DNA of 64,000 nt. Source: an uncultured Elusimicrobiales bacterium (GTDB lineage: Bacteria > Elusimicrobiota > Elusimicrobia > Elusimicrobiales > CAZFMJ01). Every line of letters starts with the position of its first letter. Positions within the stretch are counted from its first letter, which is position 1. This document shows, in pieces, positions 4,217-64,000 of the stretch. The position numbers were made by a program, and so were the translations under genes. The DNA lies in NCBI GenBank assembly GCA_964520045.1, contig CAZFMJ010000006.1:1390-65389 (forward strand). The letters run 5' to 3'. The notes under the pieces are model-generated. The model was not told the DNA's origin. It did no database searches and saw nothing but the letters and a program-made list of their open reading frames with translations.

Positions 4217-5770
4217 ATGGAAAATAAATACAAGCTTCTTAAGGAAAAACTCGGCGAGATAGCGGATATAAATTCCGCCAATAATCTTTTGCAGTGGGAC
4301 CAGCAGACCTATATGCCCAAAGGCGGAGCTTCCGCCAGGGCGGAATCAATATCCGTTTTAAGCAGAATAGCGCATGAGAAATTTACGGCTCAGGAGACGG
4401 GCAGGCTTATAAACGAATCGCGTTCATGGGCTGAAAATAAGGGATTTGACTCCGACGAAGCGGCTCTTCTGAGGGTCGTAGTCAGGGATTATGAAAAGGC
4501 AGTGAAGATTCCAGCGGATTTTGTGGCTGAATTATCAAAAGAAGTGTCCGTGGCCATGGAAGCGTGGCAGAATGCCAAAGCAAAATCTGATTTTTCCCTG
4601 TTTAAAGACCATCTGAAAAAGATAGTGGAGCTTAACAAGAGAAAAGCCGAGATACTGGGGTATAAAGAAAGTCTTTACGACGCTCTGCTGGATGAATTCG
4701 AGCCTGACATGACAAAAGCTCAGGTGAAAAAGGCTTTCAAGGAACTTCGCGACGGGCTTGTGTCCATAGTGCAGAAAATAGCCAAAAAGCAGGATAGAAT
4801 TTCAAACAGCATTTTCAATCAGGATATAGACGAAAAAAAACAGTTTAAATTTACGCGGGGAATAGTGGAAGCTTTGGGCTATGATTTTAACCGCGGACGG
4901 CAGGATCTCTCCTCGCACCCTTTTAGCGTGGACCTTTCCCTTAATGACGTAAGAATAACCACTCGGGTGCAGAAGAACTGGTTTCCGGGAGCGCTGTATG
5001 CTTCGATACATGAATGCGGACACGCGCTGTATGCGCAGGGAGTCAATCAGGCGTATGAGAGGACTCCTCTTTCCGGAGGGGCGTCTTTCGGTATACATGA
5101 ATCCCAGTCAAGGATGTGGGAAAATATAGTGGCGAGAAGCATGCAGTTCTGCGGATGGATTCTGCCGAAACTTACGAAAGAATTTCCCGAGCAATTCGGT
5201 AAAGTCTCTGTGGAACAGCTTTACGGAGCGGCGAATAAAGCGGGTCCTTCGCTTGTGCGGGTGGAGGCTGACGAGGTGACATATAATCTACACATACTGC
5301 TTAGGTTTGAAATTGAGACCGACTTGCTGGAGGGCAGGCTTAAAGTTGAGGATGTCCCCGTGGTATGGAACGAAAAAATGGAAAAATATCTGGGCATCCG
5401 TCCGGAAAAAGACGCGGACGGAGTTCTGCAGGACATACACTGGTCTCTGGGAAGCATGGGATATTTCCCGACATATACTCTCGGCAATATAATAGCCGTT
5501 CAGCTTTTCAATAAGGCGCTTTCCGACATTCCCGGTCTTTACTCCACTTTTGAAAGGGGGGAGTTTAAGCCCCTGCTTGCATGGCTGAGGGATAATATAC
5601 ACGTCCATGGCAGAAAATATACGCCCAATGAGCTTCTTAAGAGGGTGCTTAACGACACCCTGCAGGTCGCTCCCTTTTTGCGCTATATTGAGGAAAAATA
5701 TTCCATGATATACGGCTTTGAGATGAAGCAGAGAGAGCCGATGCAAAAAACAGCGGAAATCGCAAAGTAA
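4217..5770 (+). CDS. M32 family (Taq-type) metallocarboxypeptidase
   Basis: HECGHALY (HEXXH), HPF, IHESQSRMWEN and GYFPTYTLGN motifs. Start at MENKYK, preceded by aagga. Confidence 0.9.
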   Translation: MENKYKLLKEKLGEIADINSANNLLQWDQQTYMPKGGASARAESISVLSRIAHEKFTAQETGRLINESRSWAENKGFDSDEAALLRVVVRDYEKAVKIPADFVAELSKEVSVAMEAWQNAKAKSDFSLFKDHLKKIVELNKRKAEILGYKESLYDALLDEFEPDMTKAQVKKAFKELRDGLVSIVQKIAKKQDRISNSIFNQDIDEKKQFKFTRGIVEALGYDFNRGRQDLSSHPFSVDLSLNDVRITTRVQKNWFPGALYASIHECGHALYAQGVNQAYERTPLSGGASFGIHESQSRMWENIVARSMQFCGWILPKLTKEFPEQFGKVSVEQLYGAANKAGPSLVRVEADEVTYNLHILLRFEIETDLLEGRLKVEDVPVVWNEKMEKYLGIRPEKDADGVLQDIHWSLGSMGYFPTYTLGNIIAVQLFNKALSDIPGLYSTFERGEFKPLLAWLRDNIHVHGRKYTPNELLKRVLNDTLQVAPFLRYIEEKYSMIYGFEMKQREPMQKTAEIAK

Positions 5771-5898
5771 AAAAGGCGGTTCCCAATTTTTCCGCAGGTA
5801 AATTTATTATGAGAGACAGGGGGGCAATCCTGTGACTGCCCCATACCAATACTAAACTCTGAAGATCCGTGAAAGTAAAAATAAGGAGAACGGAATAT

Positions 5899-56478: not shown

Positions 56479-56835
56479 CTATTTTCTCCTTCTTTTCCCA
56501 AAAGCTTTTGAGGCCGCCTTAACCATTGCTATAAATGCGTCGACTTCTTCAGGGTTCTTGTCCCGGACAAGCTGGATGAATTTGCGGCTGCCAGCATAAA
56601 TAAAATTTTTTTCGGGTTCAGATGCATCCCTGAATAAATCCGCTACCGAAATGCGCAGGGCATGCGCCAGTTTGTGTATTGTTTCCAGGCTCGCCTTTCT
56701 GCCTTTTGTTTCAATATATGCCAGAAAACTCGGGCTTATGCCGGCGGATTCTGATAGTTGTTCAATGGTCAGCCCTGCTTTTTTCCGTTCTTCCCTCACC
56801 CGTTCACCAACAAGTGTATAGATATCTTTTACCAT
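56479..56835 (-). CDS. XRE-family HTH transcriptional regulator
   Basis: VGERVREERKKAGLTIEQLSESAGISPSFLAYIETKGRKASL. Confidence 0.8.
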   Translation of the reverse strand: MVKDIYTLVGERVREERKKAGLTIEQLSESAGISPSFLAYIETKGRKASLETIHKLAHALRISVADLFRDASEPEKNFIYAGSRKFIQLVRDKNPEEVDAFIAMVKAASKAFGKRRRK

Positions 56836-57414: not shown

Positions 57415-57616
57415 TCGGAAATCCACTACCTTTTTACTGTGACAGCGCGAGAGATTGAGGTGAGGGATGCCGCCGTTGTAAGCTTGCCCCTGCCCGGACG
57501 TATGGCAGGAGGGCTCCGATGTCGTAGCAGTCAGTTGGATGCTTATCTTGAGGATATACGGCTTCTGTATGCTGCCCACGAAGATAAAAGGAAGGGCAGG
57601 GCAAATCTGTGCGGTT

Positions 57617-58294
57617 TTAAAAGAAATTCTGATCTATTCTGCAGACGACTCCGCTTTCTTTAACTCCGTCCGCGCGCGTATAAGTCCCGTTCCCGCAGAA
57701 AATCTCTATTGATCTGTTGTCCGCCTTGTCCCGCGCTATGGCGCCGGTTATCCGCAGTTTTCCTCCGGGGGGCAGAATGCTTAAAAATTTCCCCGCTTCT
57801 TTTCCATAGAATTCGATCGTCCGGAAGACATTTGTATGAGGCGCAAAGTCAATTTTGGATATTACCGGATCGGTCAGCCTTGTCTTGGGCTCCCATGGAA
57901 AAAGATCGCCGGTGCCGGGGTTTCCGGGCTCGTAGTTTTTGCGGACTGCGATCGCGCAGAGCGGGTCGAATTCTATCCACTTTTTTTGCTGAACATTATA
58001 TGTAGCGTCTATACACTGCATGCCTATGTTGTAATCCCGGCTGACTATCAAAAGCATGCGGTCGTGCTGTCCGGCTTCAGGCAAGCCGGGTCTTTTTATG
58101 GAAGGAAGCGTTTCCATAAAGGGTCTGAGCGTTTTGCCTTCGAAATACGTTTCCTGTGTGTCGGCGGCCGTCACGGGATTTATTCCGGACACTTCTATGG
58201 CTGCTCTCCCTGTGCCAGCGGCATATGTGACGTCTGCTCCGGATGCAAGGACGGTTATAACCAATACAGTGCCTGCTGTTTTAGCGAGTTTCAT
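57617..58294 (-). CDS. hypothetical secreted protein
   Basis: Signal peptide MKLAKTAGTVLVITVLASGADVTYA. No domain recognised. Confidence 0.5.
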   Translation of the reverse strand: MKLAKTAGTVLVITVLASGADVTYAAGTGRAAIEVSGINPVTAADTQETYFEGKTLRPFMETLPSIKRPGLPEAGQHDRMLLIVSRDYNIGMQCIDATYNVQQKKWIEFDPLCAIAVRKNYEPGNPGTGDLFPWEPKTRLTDPVISKIDFAPHTNVFRTIEFYGKEAGKFLSILPPGGKLRITGAIARDKADNRSIEIFCGNGTYTRADGVKESGVVCRIDQNFF

Positions 58295-58320
58295 TTTGTT
58301 TCCTAGGGCTAATAAAAGAA

Positions 58321-58548
58321 ATGGGCAGTATAAGATTTGCCAGCGAACGCGGGTCCCAGCGGCCGTGTGCTGGGAAACCTATGACCTATAAAAGAAATGG
58401 GCAGTATAGGATTTGCCAGCGAATGCGGGTCCCCGCTGCCGTGTGCTGGGAAACCTATGACCTATAAAAGAAATGGGCAGTATAGGATTTGCCAGCGAAT
58501 GCGGGTCCCCGCTGCCGTGTGCTGGGAAACCTATGACCTATAAAAGAA
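58321..58548 (-). repeat. three tandem 76-bp units derived from the tRNA-Val 3' part (T-arm plus acceptor 3' strand), each with a 36-nt insert in the T-loop
   Basis: Period 76 (atgggcag at 58321, 58397, 58473, and 58549 in the tRNA itself). Units 2 and 3 look identical; unit 1 has 4 substitutions. Confidence 0.9.
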
Positions 58549-58549
58549 A

Positions 58550-58621
58550 TGGGCAGTATAGGATTTGAACCTATGACCCTTCGCGTGTGAGGCGAATGCT
58601 CTTCCGCTGAGCTAACTGCCC
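58550..58621 (-). tRNA. tRNA-Val (anticodon CAC)
   Basis: Reverse complement reads GGGCAGT TAGCTCAGCGGAAGAGC ATTCGC-CTCACAC-GCGAA GGGTC ATAGGTTCAAATCCTAT ACTGCCC A, a full cloverleaf. Confidence 0.85.
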
Positions 58622-58642
58622 CTTCTACCGTCCTAGATTCTA

Positions 58643-58915
58643 TCATATTTGAGCCGGCGTATGCGCAGGTGGTGCAATCAGTGGTGCAATTCCGGCATTA
58701 TCCGGGCCAAGGGAACCCGACATTGCTTCTGCCAGCGCTTCCATTTTTTCAGCCAGATGTTTATCGCTTAAATGAGAGTATCTCAAAGTCATCTGCAGGC
58801 TTGCGTGACCGGTATGTGGTGAGTTTTTCTCCCTATGTGTCCTCTCGTCGGTGGTTTCCAACTCTTGCAGAGCCTTTTCATGGCACTCGTCACATAATAA
58901 AACATCTCGACACAT
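58643..58915 (-). pseudogene. remnant ORF carrying only the extreme C-terminal motif of a tyrosine recombinase
   Basis: GHASLQMTLRYSHL (the LGHxSxxxTxxYxH block with catalytic Tyr), but no upstream R/HxxR boxes. About 90 codons. Confidence 0.6.
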
Positions 58916-58968
58916 AACAGTTCGACGAGCTTTCCATTCCCCACGGCAGCTTCCCGGCAGTTTCCCGT

Positions 58969-59991
58969 CTACAACTCCTGCAGCCAGTCCAGGATTTCCT
59001 TGGAAGACTCCGGCTTCTGCGGCTGCAAGGAACTCTCCACATAACTTGGCGGCCCGAACTGCTCCATGATGCGGCGCTTGTGGTTCAAATCGGTGTCGAG
59101 GTAGCGACTTGTGGAACTGATTGACGCGTGGCCCAGCCATGATTTTATAACGTTGGGGTCCACGCGCGATTCGAACAGATGAACTGCCGTGGTATGGCGC
59201 AAACTGTGAGTGGAAAGGCGTTTACCGACGAGGCTTGGGCATACGCGGGTGGCGAGCCGGAGGTATCTTTTAACAATGGTGCGTATCCCGAAGCGGGTGA
59301 AGGCGCCGCCGCGCTGGTTGACGAAGAATCGGCCGGAGGTGGCGAGTACGCCTTTACGGCGGTGGTCGTCGCGGTAGAGCTTGAGCAGTCTGACCGTAGA
59401 AGGCCACAGCGGCGTGAGCCTCTGTCGTTGCCCCTTGCCTATAATAGAAACGGTTCTATTGGCGAAATCGAACCAGCCGTCACGCGCATCAGCGGCCTCA
59501 TGGGCGCGCGCGCCGGTGTTGTAGAGAAAAGTCAGGATGGCCAGATCACGCATTCCGTCCGCCCTGGTTGTTTGCGGCTGTGCGAGCAATGCTTCCAGTT
59601 CCTTGCGGTCGAGCGACCCCGCCGCTTTGGGATGGACACGTTTGGCCGGAATGGCGAAGATGCGCTGGGCCTGCCGCTCGATGGCCGGGACATGGAGGGA
59701 GAGATACTTGAAGAAGCACTGGATTGCGGCCAGGCGCAGATTCCGGCTCTGTGCGCAGTTGCCCCGGCCGCCGACAGGGTCCTCCAGGTGGCGCAGGAAG
59801 GCGAGAATGGTCTTTGCGTCGAGATCTTGTACGGACAAGGGCTTCGCGCTTCGTCTTTTGGAGCCGAGATAGGCGAGCAGGAGCTTGAATGTGTCGCGGT
59901 AGCTCTTGATCGTATTTGGGCTGACCGACCTCTGGTCCCGAAGATAAACGTGGAAGAAGTCCCGTAACCGATGGTCGAGATGGGTGTTCAT
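58969..59991 (-). CDS. tyrosine recombinase (phage-integrase family)
   Basis: TGARAHEAA (Arg), HSLRHTTAVHL (HxxR), LGHASISSTSRYL (Tyr). The N-terminal SAM-like domain includes SPNTIKSYRDTF. Confidence 0.9.
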   Translation of the reverse strand: MNTHLDHRLRDFFHVYLRDQRSVSPNTIKSYRDTFKLLLAYLGSKRRSAKPLSVQDLDAKTILAFLRHLEDPVGGRGNCAQSRNLRLAAIQCFFKYLSLHVPAIERQAQRIFAIPAKRVHPKAAGSLDRKELEALLAQPQTTRADGMRDLAILTFLYNTGARAHEAADARDGWFDFANRTVSIIGKGQRQRLTPLWPSTVRLLKLYRDDHRRKGVLATSGRFFVNQRGGAFTRFGIRTIVKRYLRLATRVCPSLVGKRLSTHSLRHTTAVHLFESRVDPNVIKSWLGHASISSTSRYLDTDLNHKRRIMEQFGPPSYVESSLQPQKPESSKEILDWLQEL

Positions 59992-60788
59992 GGTTTACTG
60001 ATGGCGCGTTTAAGCGCCTTATCAGCGACAGCCTCAAAGCCGCTCTGGAAGCGCCGATCTCCTTCCCGTAGCAAGGCCTGTGTGATGGTGAGGTAGACCT
60101 GTGTGTTTTCGATATTGACATGGCCCATGTAGGTGGACAGGAGCGGAAGCTTGTTGAGAATGTCGTGGCCCTCCTGGTACCACTTATAGAGCCGGTGGAC
60201 GGCGAAGGTATGGCGCAGGTCGTGCAGTCGCGGCCTGCCGCGACCAGACTTAGCCATGCCGCAGTGCGCCAGAAGGAGTTGAAAGCGTTGGTAGATGCCG
60301 GACTTGCTGTATTTTCCTCCGGGATTGCGGAAGAAAGGTTCCTGCGGCTTAGCGGATGAATAGGATTTCTTGCGACGCGATAGATATGCGCGTAGTTTTT
60401 GCGCGATAGCGGGCGAGAACGGGACCAAACGCTCCTTATGGAATTTTGTCCGCCAAAGCGAGAGGGTCCCCTGCTCGAAATCTACGTCCTCTATTTTGAG
60501 ATTGATAGCTTCGCTGAGCCTGAGACTGCAGGCATAGAGGAGCAAAACGAGAGTTTCCATTGTCCAGCCCGTGAGGCGGTTGGGGTAGCGACGCTGGAGA
60601 GCGTGGGACGCCTCGATTATCCGATGGATCTCCTGGAGCGTGTAGATGTGAGGTTTGTAGGTCTTCTGCCGCAGGTACGGGATGCGCTGGGCCGGGTTGT
60701 CTGGAAGCTCGCCCATGCGCACAAGATAGTTGAGGAAGCCTCTGGCGAAACGGAGATTGGCGTTCTTAGTCTGCCGGAACGCCCGCAC
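59988..60788 (-). CDS. tyrosine recombinase (phage-integrase family), N-terminus possibly frameshifted
   Basis: LRLSEAINL, HDLRHTFAVH, MGHVNIENTQVYL. ATGA overlap with the downstream recombinase. An out-of-frame MSIDKQIRKYLA start at 60868 could be the original N-terminus. Confidence 0.8.
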   Translation of the reverse strand: MRAFRQTKNANLRFARGFLNYLVRMGELPDNPAQRIPYLRQKTYKPHIYTLQEIHRIIEASHALQRRYPNRLTGWTMETLVLLLYACSLRLSEAINLKIEDVDFEQGTLSLWRTKFHKERLVPFSPAIAQKLRAYLSRRKKSYSSAKPQEPFFRNPGGKYSKSGIYQRFQLLLAHCGMAKSGRGRPRLHDLRHTFAVHRLYKWYQEGHDILNKLPLLSTYMGHVNIENTQVYLTITQALLREGDRRFQSGFEAVADKALKRAISKP

Positions 60789-61004
60789 AATTGGCAGCAG
60801 GCAGGCTTTAGGAGGCGGCTATCCTGCGCGCAAGCGAGGTATTTGCGTATCTGTTTGTCTATGGACATGGATAGCAATCACCATTTGAGCCAGAGTTCGC
60901 TGCTTCGTTATCATGTCCTTTGGGACAGACTTGGCCTTCCAGTGCTGAACGCTGAAGTTTTTATCCTCTTCCGCTTCAGAACTTTAGTATAACAGCCATC
61001 GGCT

Positions 61005-62155: not shown

Positions 62156-62644
62156 TTAAAAGAGAGAAGAATTTTCGGCGCGTGGGTGAGCGCTTCGGTA
62201 GACCTTAATGATGTGCTGGGGACTCACATGTAGGTAAATGGCTGTCGTCGAGAGGTGGCGATGGCCAAGCATTTCTTGCAGGGATCGCAGGTCCGCCCCA
62301 TGTTGAAGCATGTGGCTGGCGAAGCAATGCCGAAGAAGATGCGGGTGGACGGACTTATTCAGGCCGGCGCTCTTTGCGTAAAGCTTTACGCGATGCCAAA
62401 AGGAACTCCGATTTAAGGGACGACCCTGGCGGGTCAGAAACAGAACCCGCTCCGTCCCATTAGGAAACCTCTTGACCCTTTCCTCCATGTAGCGGACAAT
62501 GGCTTCCTGCGCTTTCTGGCCGATGGGTACAAGCCTTGTCCGGCCTCCCTTGCCGTGGATGCGGGCATATCCTTCCGCAAAATGGATTTGGTTTTCCTGA
62601 AGATTAAGAATGGGAAGGGGGACGTAGCTTTGATTCTTGAATAT
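62156..62644 (-). pseudogene. 5'-truncated XerD-like tyrosine recombinase (catalytic domain only)
   Basis: The stop-free frame reads ...HGKGGRTRLVPIGQKAQEAIVRYMEER...HPHLLRHCFASHML..GADLRSLQEMLGHRHLSTTAIYLHV. The roughly 130 N-terminal residues I would expect are absent, with a stop at 62645-62647. Confidence 0.75.
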
Positions 62645-62856: not shown

Positions 62857-64000
62857 TTATCGTATTCCCAAGACCACAGGCAGGTTGACTATAAATTCCT
62901 CAAACGGCCGGACCTCAATGCCGTTATGATACTCCTTGCTGTCCACTCCGCATGCCAGAAAACATTTTGCCTGCGGATAGTCCGCCTTAAACAATTTTAA
63001 GCCGGTCATTAGATCATTTTTTACGCGATGAGACCGCTTAACTTCAATGGCGATAAAAGTGTTTTTTCCGTAAATCACAAAATCCACCTCAGCGCCTAAA
63101 GATGTTTTCCAGTAATAAATGGTCAGATCCAGGCCGAAGTAATCGTTGAGCGCGGTAATTTCCTGTAAAAGCAGCGTTTCAAGCGCGGCGTCGTTTATTT
63201 CCTCAGGTGTGTCCAGCGGTCCCACCGGGCGCAGTGTGCGGTATATGCCGGCGTCAAAAAAGAAAAACTTATCTCCGGTTACAAGCCGTCTTTTGGCGCG
63301 CCGCGTAAAAGGCGGAATTCTGGCGCCGACCAAAAGATCTTCGGTGATCTGAAAATATCCCTCAACGGTCTTTCTGTCGATCCCAACTTCGCGGGCAATT
63401 TCCGTTGAGTTGACCGCGCCCGCCTGTGAAAAGCTGGCGACTTCCAAAAATCTTGAAAACGAAGCGATTGACCGCGTAATTCCTTCCTGCAAAACTTCTT
63501 CCCGCAGATAGGTTTTAATATAGGACGACAGATAGGCGTCTTTGTCTTTGGCCTTAAATATATAAGGTAGGTGCCCGAATTTCAGCGATTGTTTTAAGTT
63601 GAAGTCTCTTCCAAGCTCCATCACGGTAAGCGGGTGAAAATGATAGGTTAATGCTCTTCCCGCAAGCAGATTAACGCCTTTTCTTCTTAGCGTGCGCGCG
63701 CTTGAGCCTGTAAGCACGAAAGAAATACCCTTTTCTTCAATAAGCCTGTGAACTTCGTTAAGCAGGGCGGGAATGCGCTGGATTTCATCAATAACAACTC
63801 TGCCGGTATGATCGGGAGGAATAAAGCTTTCAAGCCGCTCGGGCGCGGCCAATAATTTTGTGTATGACTGTGACTTAAGCAGGTCGATAAAAACGGCTTT
63901 AGGGAACACTGTTTTAAGCCATGTGGTTTTGCCTGTGGCGCGCGGGCCGAAAAGAAAAAAACTCTGTTGGGAGTCCAGATATCGCTTTACAATTCGAGTA
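62857..64000 (-). CDS. AAA-family ATPase with DUF4143-like C-terminal domain (5' end runs off the window)
   Basis: Walker A FGPRATGKTT is encoded at about 63925-63955, upstream of the ORF-track start. VIDEIQRIP Walker B-like block. No start codon within the window. Confidence 0.75.
   Translation of the reverse strand, partial: TRIVKRYLDSQQSFFLFGPRATGKTTWLKTVFPKAVFIDLLKSQSYTKLLAAPERLESFIPPDHTGRVVIDEIQRIPALLNEVHRLIEEKGISFVLTGSSARTLRRKGVNLLAGRALTYHFHPLTVMELGRDFNLKQSLKFGHLPYIFKAKDKDAYLSSYIKTYLREEVLQEGITRSIASFSRFLEVASFSQAGAVNSTEIAREVGIDRKTVEGYFQITEDLLVGARIPPFTRRAKRRLVTGDKFFFFDAGIYRTLRPVGPLDTPEEINDAALETLLLQEITALNDYFGLDLTIYYWKTSLGAEVDFVIYGKNTFIAIEVKRSHRVKNDLMTGLKLFKADYPQAKCFLACGVDSKEYHNGIEVRPFEEFIVNLPVVLGIR

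Follow-up and report, generated by a model that had tools for sequence, protein, structure and literature searches.

We analysed a 64,000-nt stretch of DNA, hereafter called the window, from an uncultured Elusimicrobiales bacterium (assembly GCA_964520045.1, contig CAZFMJ010000006.1, positions 1,390 to 65,389). On its minus strand, a tRNA-Val(CAC) gene is followed by an array of three tandem 76-bp units, which occupies positions 58322-58549, starts 0 nt past the tRNA's 3' terminus and lies on the same strand. Tandem Repeats Finder described the repeat as 3.4 copies of a period of 76 bp at 58312-58567, with 97% matches and a score of 484. Read in the sense of the tRNA, the alignment resolved each unit into an 11-nt AU-rich trailer (TTTCTTTTATA), the segment GGTCATAGGTT, a GC-rich insert of 36 nt, and the segment CAAATCCTATACTGCCCA. 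The segment upstream of the insert is an exact match to tRNA positions 45-55, and the 18-nt segment downstream of it is an exact match to positions 56-73. When the 3' half of the tRNA was aligned with the three units, the edges of the insert were unambiguous and fell between T55 and C56 of the T-loop. The identity of the 18 tRNA-derived nucleotides (18/18 kept in units 1 and 2, and 17/18 in unit 3) stops at the discriminator base. The coordinates of these and neighbouring features are listed in Table 1.

The distal unit differs from the proximal units by four substitutions, three of which are located within the insert and one in the 3' strand of the T-stem. In unit coordinates, A37C and A50G lie opposite each other in an inner hairpin and change an A.A opposition into C-G, G40U disrupts a G-C pair, and C65U retains the T-stem pair as G.U. 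An initial annotation of this DNA had described a tRNA-Val followed by three 76-bp units with a 36-nt insert inside the T-loop, two of them identical and one with four substitutions, and our alignments confirmed both this anatomy, to the base, and the pattern of substitutions. The 36-mer was observed three times in the window against 0.00 expected from shuffled sequences, and the 18-mer four times against 0.07 expected; counts this far above expectation exclude chance. Perfect repeats of 28 bp, composed of the 18 nt of tRNA and 10 nt of trailer, flank each 48-bp unit interior. With respect to coding potential, the repeats contain just short, frame-shifting open reading frames (ORFs). The closest relatives of the tRNA-Val gene (L013, which is 95.8% identical and belongs to the Elusimicrobiales, and L017) encode CCA followed by a terminator, whereas the tRNA gene in the window lacks both.

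Table 1. Coordinates of the tRNA-Val gene, its downstream array and neighbouring features in the 64,000-nt window.
Feature	Position	Strand	Remarks
tRNA-Val(CAC)	58550-58621	minus	72 nt, without encoded CCA, then TTTCTTTTAT; ARAGORN; Rfam tRNA 71.4 bits
Unit 1 (proximal)	58474-58549	minus	76 bp; covariance model built from the units scores 109.9 bits
Unit 1, trailer	58539-58549		
Unit 1, copy of tRNA 45-55	58528-58538		
Unit 1, 36-nt insert	58492-58527		
Unit 1, copy of tRNA 56-73	58474-58491		
Unit 2	58398-58473	minus	Identical to unit 1; missing from assemblies L002 and L003
Unit 3 (distal)	58322-58397	minus	Four substitutions; found in all four other assemblies
Last trailer copy	58312-58321	minus	TTTCTTTTAT; repeat then ends in TAGCCCTAGGAAACAAAATG
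225-aa orphan ORF	57617-58294	minus	Signal-peptide-like N-terminus; ribosome-binding site and ATG follow 17 nt after the array
Candidate extended -10 element	58637-58645	minus	TGaTAGAAT; roughly 15 nt before the tRNA 5' end; resemblance to the consensus only
ORF tail with weak tyrosine-recombinase C-terminal motif	58646-58805	minus	Motif GHASLQMTLRYSHL; ends 24 nt before the tRNA
Decayed recombinase-in-trio (RIT) element	58806-60935	minus	Context, not part of the array
RIT third gene	58969-59991	minus	Intact, 340 aa
RIT second gene	59988-60788	minus	266 of about 333 aa; first gene lost

The same locus was present on four contigs of independent metagenome assemblies (ENA, JGI, Logan), which were located via the downstream 225-aa protein. 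The whole locus is contained in two of these contigs, L002 and L003, which match the window with 99.9-100% identity but lack exactly 76 bp; their array consists of one proximal-type unit followed by the distal unit, i.e., two units versus three in the window. The other two contigs, L001 and L004, end within the array. The different number of units and the two contigs that stop within the array are what one might expect of a repeat created or inflated by an assembler. Against such an artefact, the unit with its insert, its junction to the tRNA, and the distal unit with its substitutions recur in all four assemblies, which stem from different projects and different assemblers, and a diverged third copy is not expected from assembler error. 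Since the array was reproduced in four independent assemblies, it is not an artefact, an explanation that we consider hardly credible; the insert-bearing unit and the array are real. The difference between two and three units can be either true variation or a collapse of the identical proximal units in short-read assembly. One of the contigs, L001, matches the window without a single difference between the array and the end of a response-regulator gene (100% identity), and then diverges 53 nt into a helix-turn-helix (HTH) gene (L001 from position 1636 onward, versus position 56782 of the window). Beyond this point L001 carries a truncated gyrB, dciA, dnaN and dnaA, which may reflect either a chimeric low-coverage assembly or a real strain rearrangement.

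Outside this locus, the insert had no further copy in the collections that we searched. In the window itself, allowing up to three mismatches, it does not occur outside the three copies in the array. It gave 0 matches in viral contigs and no match in phages and plasmids, and the metagenome contig collection held no real copy, with one chance match within a coding region (L056). A scan of GTDB with the 3' half of the tRNA returned 51 stretches, none of which has the insert beside tRNA-Val. The search for further copies of the insert that the initial annotation had proposed revealed no second site, and none of the loci obtained for the comparison of related tRNA-Val loci, also proposed there, was usable as an orthologous counterpart of the array. 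A covariance model built from the units and run over 335 kb of fetched loci recovered nothing beyond the units and ordinary T-arms of tRNA-Val, which aligned with a deletion in place of the insert. Rfam detected only the tRNA between positions 57500 and 59500, and we found no larger repeat-bounded element around the array. The insert resembles REP- or MITE-like mobile hairpins in being a short, GC-rich, imperfect palindrome without target-site duplication, but differs from them in having no dispersed copy in the window or in the scanned collections. An integron attC site or an insertion by a serine recombinase was rejected, as the sequence at the junctions is incompatible with G|TTRRRY and the two junctions show no duplicated dinucleotide. 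A derivation of the insert from the anticodon arm of the tRNA, with which it has GCATTCGC and CACACG in common, was set aside, as the chance probability of an 8-mer match is about 0.03-0.06.

The closest known system is formed by the tRNA-linked repeats (TLRs) of Escherichia coli, which are represented in Rfam by RtT. The first TLRs of E. coli were described in 1978, after tyrT genes; the family has 22 members, which are distributed over ten loci in groups of one to five, and for 19 of them neither a function nor an agreed origin has been assigned (PMC8144298). Their defining traits are a location in a tRNA (or rRNA) operon, directly downstream of the tRNA and on its strand, the possession of 18-19 bp of the 3' end of the upstream tRNA at the 3' end of each unit, and transcription together with the tRNA, with release by cleavage at the repeated 3' end (PMC8144298; Egan & Landy 1978). 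E. coli TLRs are transcribed and processed, and the repeated 3' end has been proposed to direct processing by RNase E (PMC8144298).

We inspected TLRs directly in four operons of E. coli K-12, namely tyrTV, lysT, valU-lysV and serV-argVYZQ (L059, L062, L065 and L066). After tyrV, a 178-bp unit is present in 3.1 copies and encodes the RttR/rtT RNA (Rfam RtT, RF00391). The lysT and serV-arg operons, the tyrT-tyrV spacer and the sequence after lysV hold further TLRs. Every inspected TLR ends in 18-19 nt (CCA included) of the local tRNA (Tyr, Lys or Arg), and all junctions fall inside the T-loop, whose place is taken by a structured insert. Upstream of the insert, the tyrT units (AAGGTTCGA) and the lysV/lysQ-terminal TLR (GCAGGTTtGA) also keep the T-stem 5' strand together with the first T-loop bases. 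The Tyr, Lys and Arg TLRs have a common double-hairpin core just upstream of the junction (GGATAACGTTGC..GCAACGGCCCGAAGGGCGAG..GAGTnAT). The strand upstream of this core, which would be the pairing partner of the T-stem, only partly tracks the local tRNA, and reads GAAGG for Tyr, GTAGG or GAAGG for Lys, and GGAGG, GAAGG or GGATG for Arg. The Rfam RtT model scored the K-12 TLRs at 46.7-137.5 bits, with a gathering score of 45 bits. In the RtT consensus, the 3' segment derived from the tRNA pairs with a strand further upstream to form a closing helix, which encloses internal hairpins and leaves the 3' tail free.

The array in the window corresponds to the E. coli TLRs point by point. It is tandem, as are the 3.1 copies at tyrV, and lies directly downstream of a tRNA gene in the same orientation. 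Its units close with the last 18 nt of the tRNA that precedes them, the trailer is repeated after each, and the number of units (three in the window, and two in L002 and L003) is within the range of one to five. The junction to the tRNA-derived sequence sits in the T-loop, and the split T-arm of the units is seen also in the tyrT units and in the lysV/lysQ-terminal TLR. The array differs from the E. coli TLRs in the length of the insert (36 nt versus about 55-150 nt), in the exact position of the junction (55|56 versus about 58), and in its host, which is a metagenome-assembled genome (MAG) of the Elusimicrobiota rather than an enterobacterium.

The predicted fold of the unit follows a similar plan. 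As RNA, a unit would fold into a long hairpin that resembles a T-arm, with the 3' acceptor strand of the tRNA as a free tail. From the outside inwards, the prediction consists of the T-stem AUAGG/CCUAU, three U-A pairs, the helix CCAGC/GCUGG and an inner GC hairpin. For the two distinct unit sequences, 95% of the cells were paired in the predicted minimum free energy fold, versus 28-48% in slid controls. Like the RtT consensus, the predicted fold has a closing helix that uses the 3' strand of the T-stem, an internal hairpin and a 3' acceptor tail. Two features of the distal unit, the change of the facing A.A into a C-G pair and the G.U that keeps the T-stem paired, may be weak hints of a constraint on pairing.

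Two other loci of a similar kind were met by chance among the fetched loci. In L025, a MAG of the Elusimicrobiales, positions 1323-1551 of the minus strand contain a tRNA-Val(CAC) without CCA, followed by a strongly structured 136-nt spacer (z = -4.5), an exact 18-nt copy of the tRNA 3' end that starts at C56, and finally CCA and a terminator. Within the spacer, tRNA positions 54-68 recur in inverted orientation (AGTATAGGATTTGAA); the spacer is unrelated to the insert in the window; an apparent similarity between the unit and this spacer was not significant and was rejected. We regard L025 as one unit, either TLR-like or a mini-insertion, whose junction coincides with that of the array. In L024, a tRNA cluster of an uncultured MAG, positions 5480-5843 (approximately) of the minus strand contain a tRNA-Asp(GTC) and, after it, two tandem units of about 115-140 nt; the last 16 nt of the second unit match the tRNA-Asp 3' end exactly (CCCGTCGTCCCCGCCA). 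These two examples imply that TLR-like units are not confined to enterobacteria.

Our preferred interpretation, to which we assign a probability of roughly 0.55, is that the array consists of TLR-like repeats of the RtT-like class after a tRNA-Val in Elusimicrobiota. It is best filed as a variant of the known TLR layout, with an unrelated 36-nt insert and no CCA, rather than as a new kind of element. The initial annotation placed the break point in the T-loop, and this position does look meaningful, as the C56 boundary recurs in L025 and the inspected E. coli junctions all lie in the T-loop. The T-loop junctions of the window, L025 and all inspected E. coli TLRs suggest that the T-arm hairpin was the site of a template switch or of recombination, be it site-specific or illegitimate. 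The founding unit may thus have arisen by recombination or a template switch at this hairpin, with its junction in the T-loop. Subsequently, the array would have expanded and contracted as the 28-bp perfect repeats recombined unequally or slipped during replication, because these repeats flank the unit interiors, the two proximal units are identical, and the number of units differs by one between assemblies. The identity of the proximal units, the divergence of the distal unit, and the difference of one 76-bp unit between assemblies favour a recent expansion.

The array, the tRNA-Val and probably also the downstream 225-aa gene may be transcribed together from the tRNA promoter. The tRNA, the units and the ORF probably form one transcript because no intrinsic terminator or sigma-70-like promoter was called between the tRNA and the ORF on this strand, and the ribosome-binding site lies 8 nt after the last trailer. 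This transcript would start at the candidate extended -10 element (TGnTAGAAT) ahead of the tRNA. As to the tRNA promoter itself, a sigma-70 scan that requires a -35 box called nothing on the strand of the tRNA, including the candidate -10 element at 58637-58645. Just upstream of this putative promoter, at 58669-58692, are two tandem copies of a 12-nt motif (ATTGCACCAC-TG and ATTGCACCAC-CTG in the sense of the tRNA). Enzymes that trim the tRNA 3' end and the trailer would be expected to cut at each copy, since each unit reproduces both the tRNA 3' end and the AU-rich trailer; the products would be tRNA-Val, hairpin RNAs of about 76 nt, and an mRNA. If the units are processed as TLRs are, these RNAs of about 76 nt would begin within the trailer and terminate at, or immediately behind, ...ACTGCCCA.

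Of the three explanations suggested in the initial annotation, we favour replication slippage combined with a co-transcribed array of structured RNAs, which matches the layout of the E. coli TLRs, a likeness that the annotation did not recognise. The remaining one, repeated integration and excision of a minimal element, is unlikely: a circle of just 76 bp is not plausible, and searches of the viral, phage, plasmid and metagenome collections did not yield the insert.

Several points weigh against the TLR-like interpretation. The likeness to RtT is architectural and could be due to convergence or coincidence: the unit gives no match to the Rfam RtT model, even at E <= 10, and the insert shows no sequence likeness to the E. 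coli core. The units also lack an encoded CCA, which all E. coli TLRs have. Furthermore, the nested hairpin pointed out in the initial annotation is indeed predicted by folding, but its stability is ordinary for its composition, as it is no more stable than that of shuffled sequences (z = -1.0 to -1.6). As for the covariance analysis proposed there, the two distinct unit sequences are too few for a real test: no pair changed on both sides, so that there was no compensatory pair, and one substitution breaks a G-C pair. Finally, we infer transcription and processing of the array from the sequence only, and the interpretation leaves the source of the 36-nt insert unexplained.

Instead of TLR-like repeats, the array might represent a DNA scar only. 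According to this explanation, the T-loop was the integration site of an element whose attP had the final 18 nt of the tRNA in common with it; deletion then reduced the interior of the element to 58 bp, and the scar was duplicated, without any role as RNA. In favour of such an origin, the tRNA gene in the window lacks the CCA and the terminator of its closest relatives, and L025 shows the classic signature at the C56 boundary: a tRNA, a 136-nt filler, an exact 18-nt copy, and the native CCA and terminator. The surroundings fit as well, as the region is strewn with recombinase remnants, the sequence from 56.5 kb to the end of the window is lineage-specific in comparison with the nearest relatives, and partial tRNA-Val copies at island flanks were common among the fetched loci. 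As in the attL and attR repeats of tRNA-targeting tyrosine integrases, a direct repeat of the tRNA 3' segment starts in the T-loop, and a lineage-specific region rich in recombinase remnants is also found in the tandem accretion of islands (tycheposons, bioRxiv 10.1101/2020.12.28.424599). However, integration predicts an uninterrupted copy, and not the additional 11-nt copy of the 5' half of the T-arm (tRNA 45-55) that is set off by 36 nt from the 18-nt block (56-73); the objection in the initial annotation that one attL/attR scar cannot explain the interrupted T-arm therefore holds. Unlike ordinary att repeats, the repeats in the window are just 58 bp apart, enclose no gene and form a perfect tandem array. 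They also lack an intact cognate integrase and an attR-type copy elsewhere in the 64 kb, although an earlier element that has since been deleted is conceivable, and none of the viral, phage and plasmid collections contained the insert. Moreover, a scar would explain only the origin of the units and is compatible with a later use as RNA, as E. coli TLRs of the same layout are transcribed and processed (PMC8144298). We judge a mere scar to be unlikely, although it deserves serious consideration. The partial copies at island flanks occur in Elusimicrobiota and Magnetococcales (L009/L032, L018/L023, L026/L033/L054, L044/L049 and L019/L050), where a full tRNA-Val is accompanied by one or two partial copies 2-7 kb away; these copies start in the anticodon stem-loop, and are ordinary att repeats of the anticodon-loop sublocation rather than of the T-loop.

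Two further explanations link the array to neighbouring genes. The T-loop is a known crossover sublocation of tRNA-targeting integrases, and recombinase genes lie less than 350 bp from the tRNA, so the units, with their break point in the T-loop, might be live recombination sites or a mobile mini-element of the neighbouring tyrosine recombinases, comparable to an array of att sites or cassettes. Yet these recombinases belong to a truncated RIT trio. Eight contigs carry homologous RIT trios of 533, 333 and 340 aa with 82-94% DNA identity, none of which has a tRNA gene, and RIT homology ends at about position 58805, about 180 bp upstream of the tRNA. In addition, no part of the unit recurs near the recombinases or elsewhere in the window, and a circle of 76 bp would presumably be too small as a recombination substrate. 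As there is no tRNA near any of the eight RIT copies, we found no link between the recombinases and the array; the involvement hinted at in the initial annotation is unsupported, and live sites seem very improbable. On the other side of the array, the 225-aa gene, which shares the strand of the array, has no space for a promoter of its own, since just 27 nt separate its start from the last 18-mer derived from the tRNA, and each unit contains TATACT followed by a U-rich tract. One could therefore envisage the array as a cis-acting leader of this gene, with tandem promoters, attenuators or terminators, or stabilising 5' structures that couple the gene to transcription of the tRNA or insulate it. 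Against this role, the scans detected no sigma-70-like promoter and no intrinsic terminator in the array on this strand, TATACT simply belongs to the tRNA sequence, and the U-tract is set apart from the main stem. The 225-aa ORF belongs to no Pfam or NCBIfam family and has only two homologues, both on short contigs, with unrelated upstream regions and no tRNA upstream. A leader function is in our opinion improbable.

The wider region is variable. NadA, encoded 2 kb from the array, is 63-66% identical to proteins of Elusimicrobia, with nearest relatives at 72-76%. In the two relatives that are nearest by NadA, the NifU-PHP-GDPD-NadA synteny is kept, the sequence after NadA is different, and there is no tRNA-Val. 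Judged from this comparison, the region from about 56.5 kb to the end of the window looks lineage-specific; it contains the HTH gene, the response regulator, the orphan ORF, the array, the tRNA and the recombinase debris. The variable region runs past the end of the window. Close relatives of the RIT element, with up to 94% DNA identity, were found on many short metagenome contigs, as expected for a multicopy mobile element. The ORF tail between the RIT element and the tRNA matched an XerD-like fragment at 62156-62488 with a BLASTP E value of 0.015 and had no Pfam match; its motif GHASLQMTLRYSHL resembles the region of the catalytic tyrosine. Tentatively, it is possibly the remnant of an older integrase that was disrupted by the RIT element. 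The XerD-like C-terminal fragment (110 aa) and an AAA_14/DUF4143 ATPase gene (62857-63909) are further debris of mobile elements upstream of the tRNA.

With one locus and a role in the cell that is not demonstrated, the practical importance of the array is modest. The same architecture with an unrelated insert in a distant, uncultured phylum suggests that the TLR layout arises repeatedly, and L025 and L024 lend weight to this view. The clustering of the junctions in the T-loop (55|56 in the window and in L025, and about 58 in E. coli) is a clue to the mechanism of origin, and a T-loop junction rule could be used for a genome-wide survey. A more far-reaching and rather doubtful idea is that tRNA 3'-end mimics with a split T-arm are a recurrent product, across phyla, of a process directed at the T-loop, and that they are retained since the RNAs act. 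If so, the array in the Elusimicrobiota, L025 and L024 would be the first members outside the enterobacteria, with inserts that evolved independently. Their RNAs may then act as a decoy or buffer for the processing of tRNA 3' ends or for CCA addition or, alternatively, punctuate processing such that an mRNA is placed under the promoter of a tRNA.

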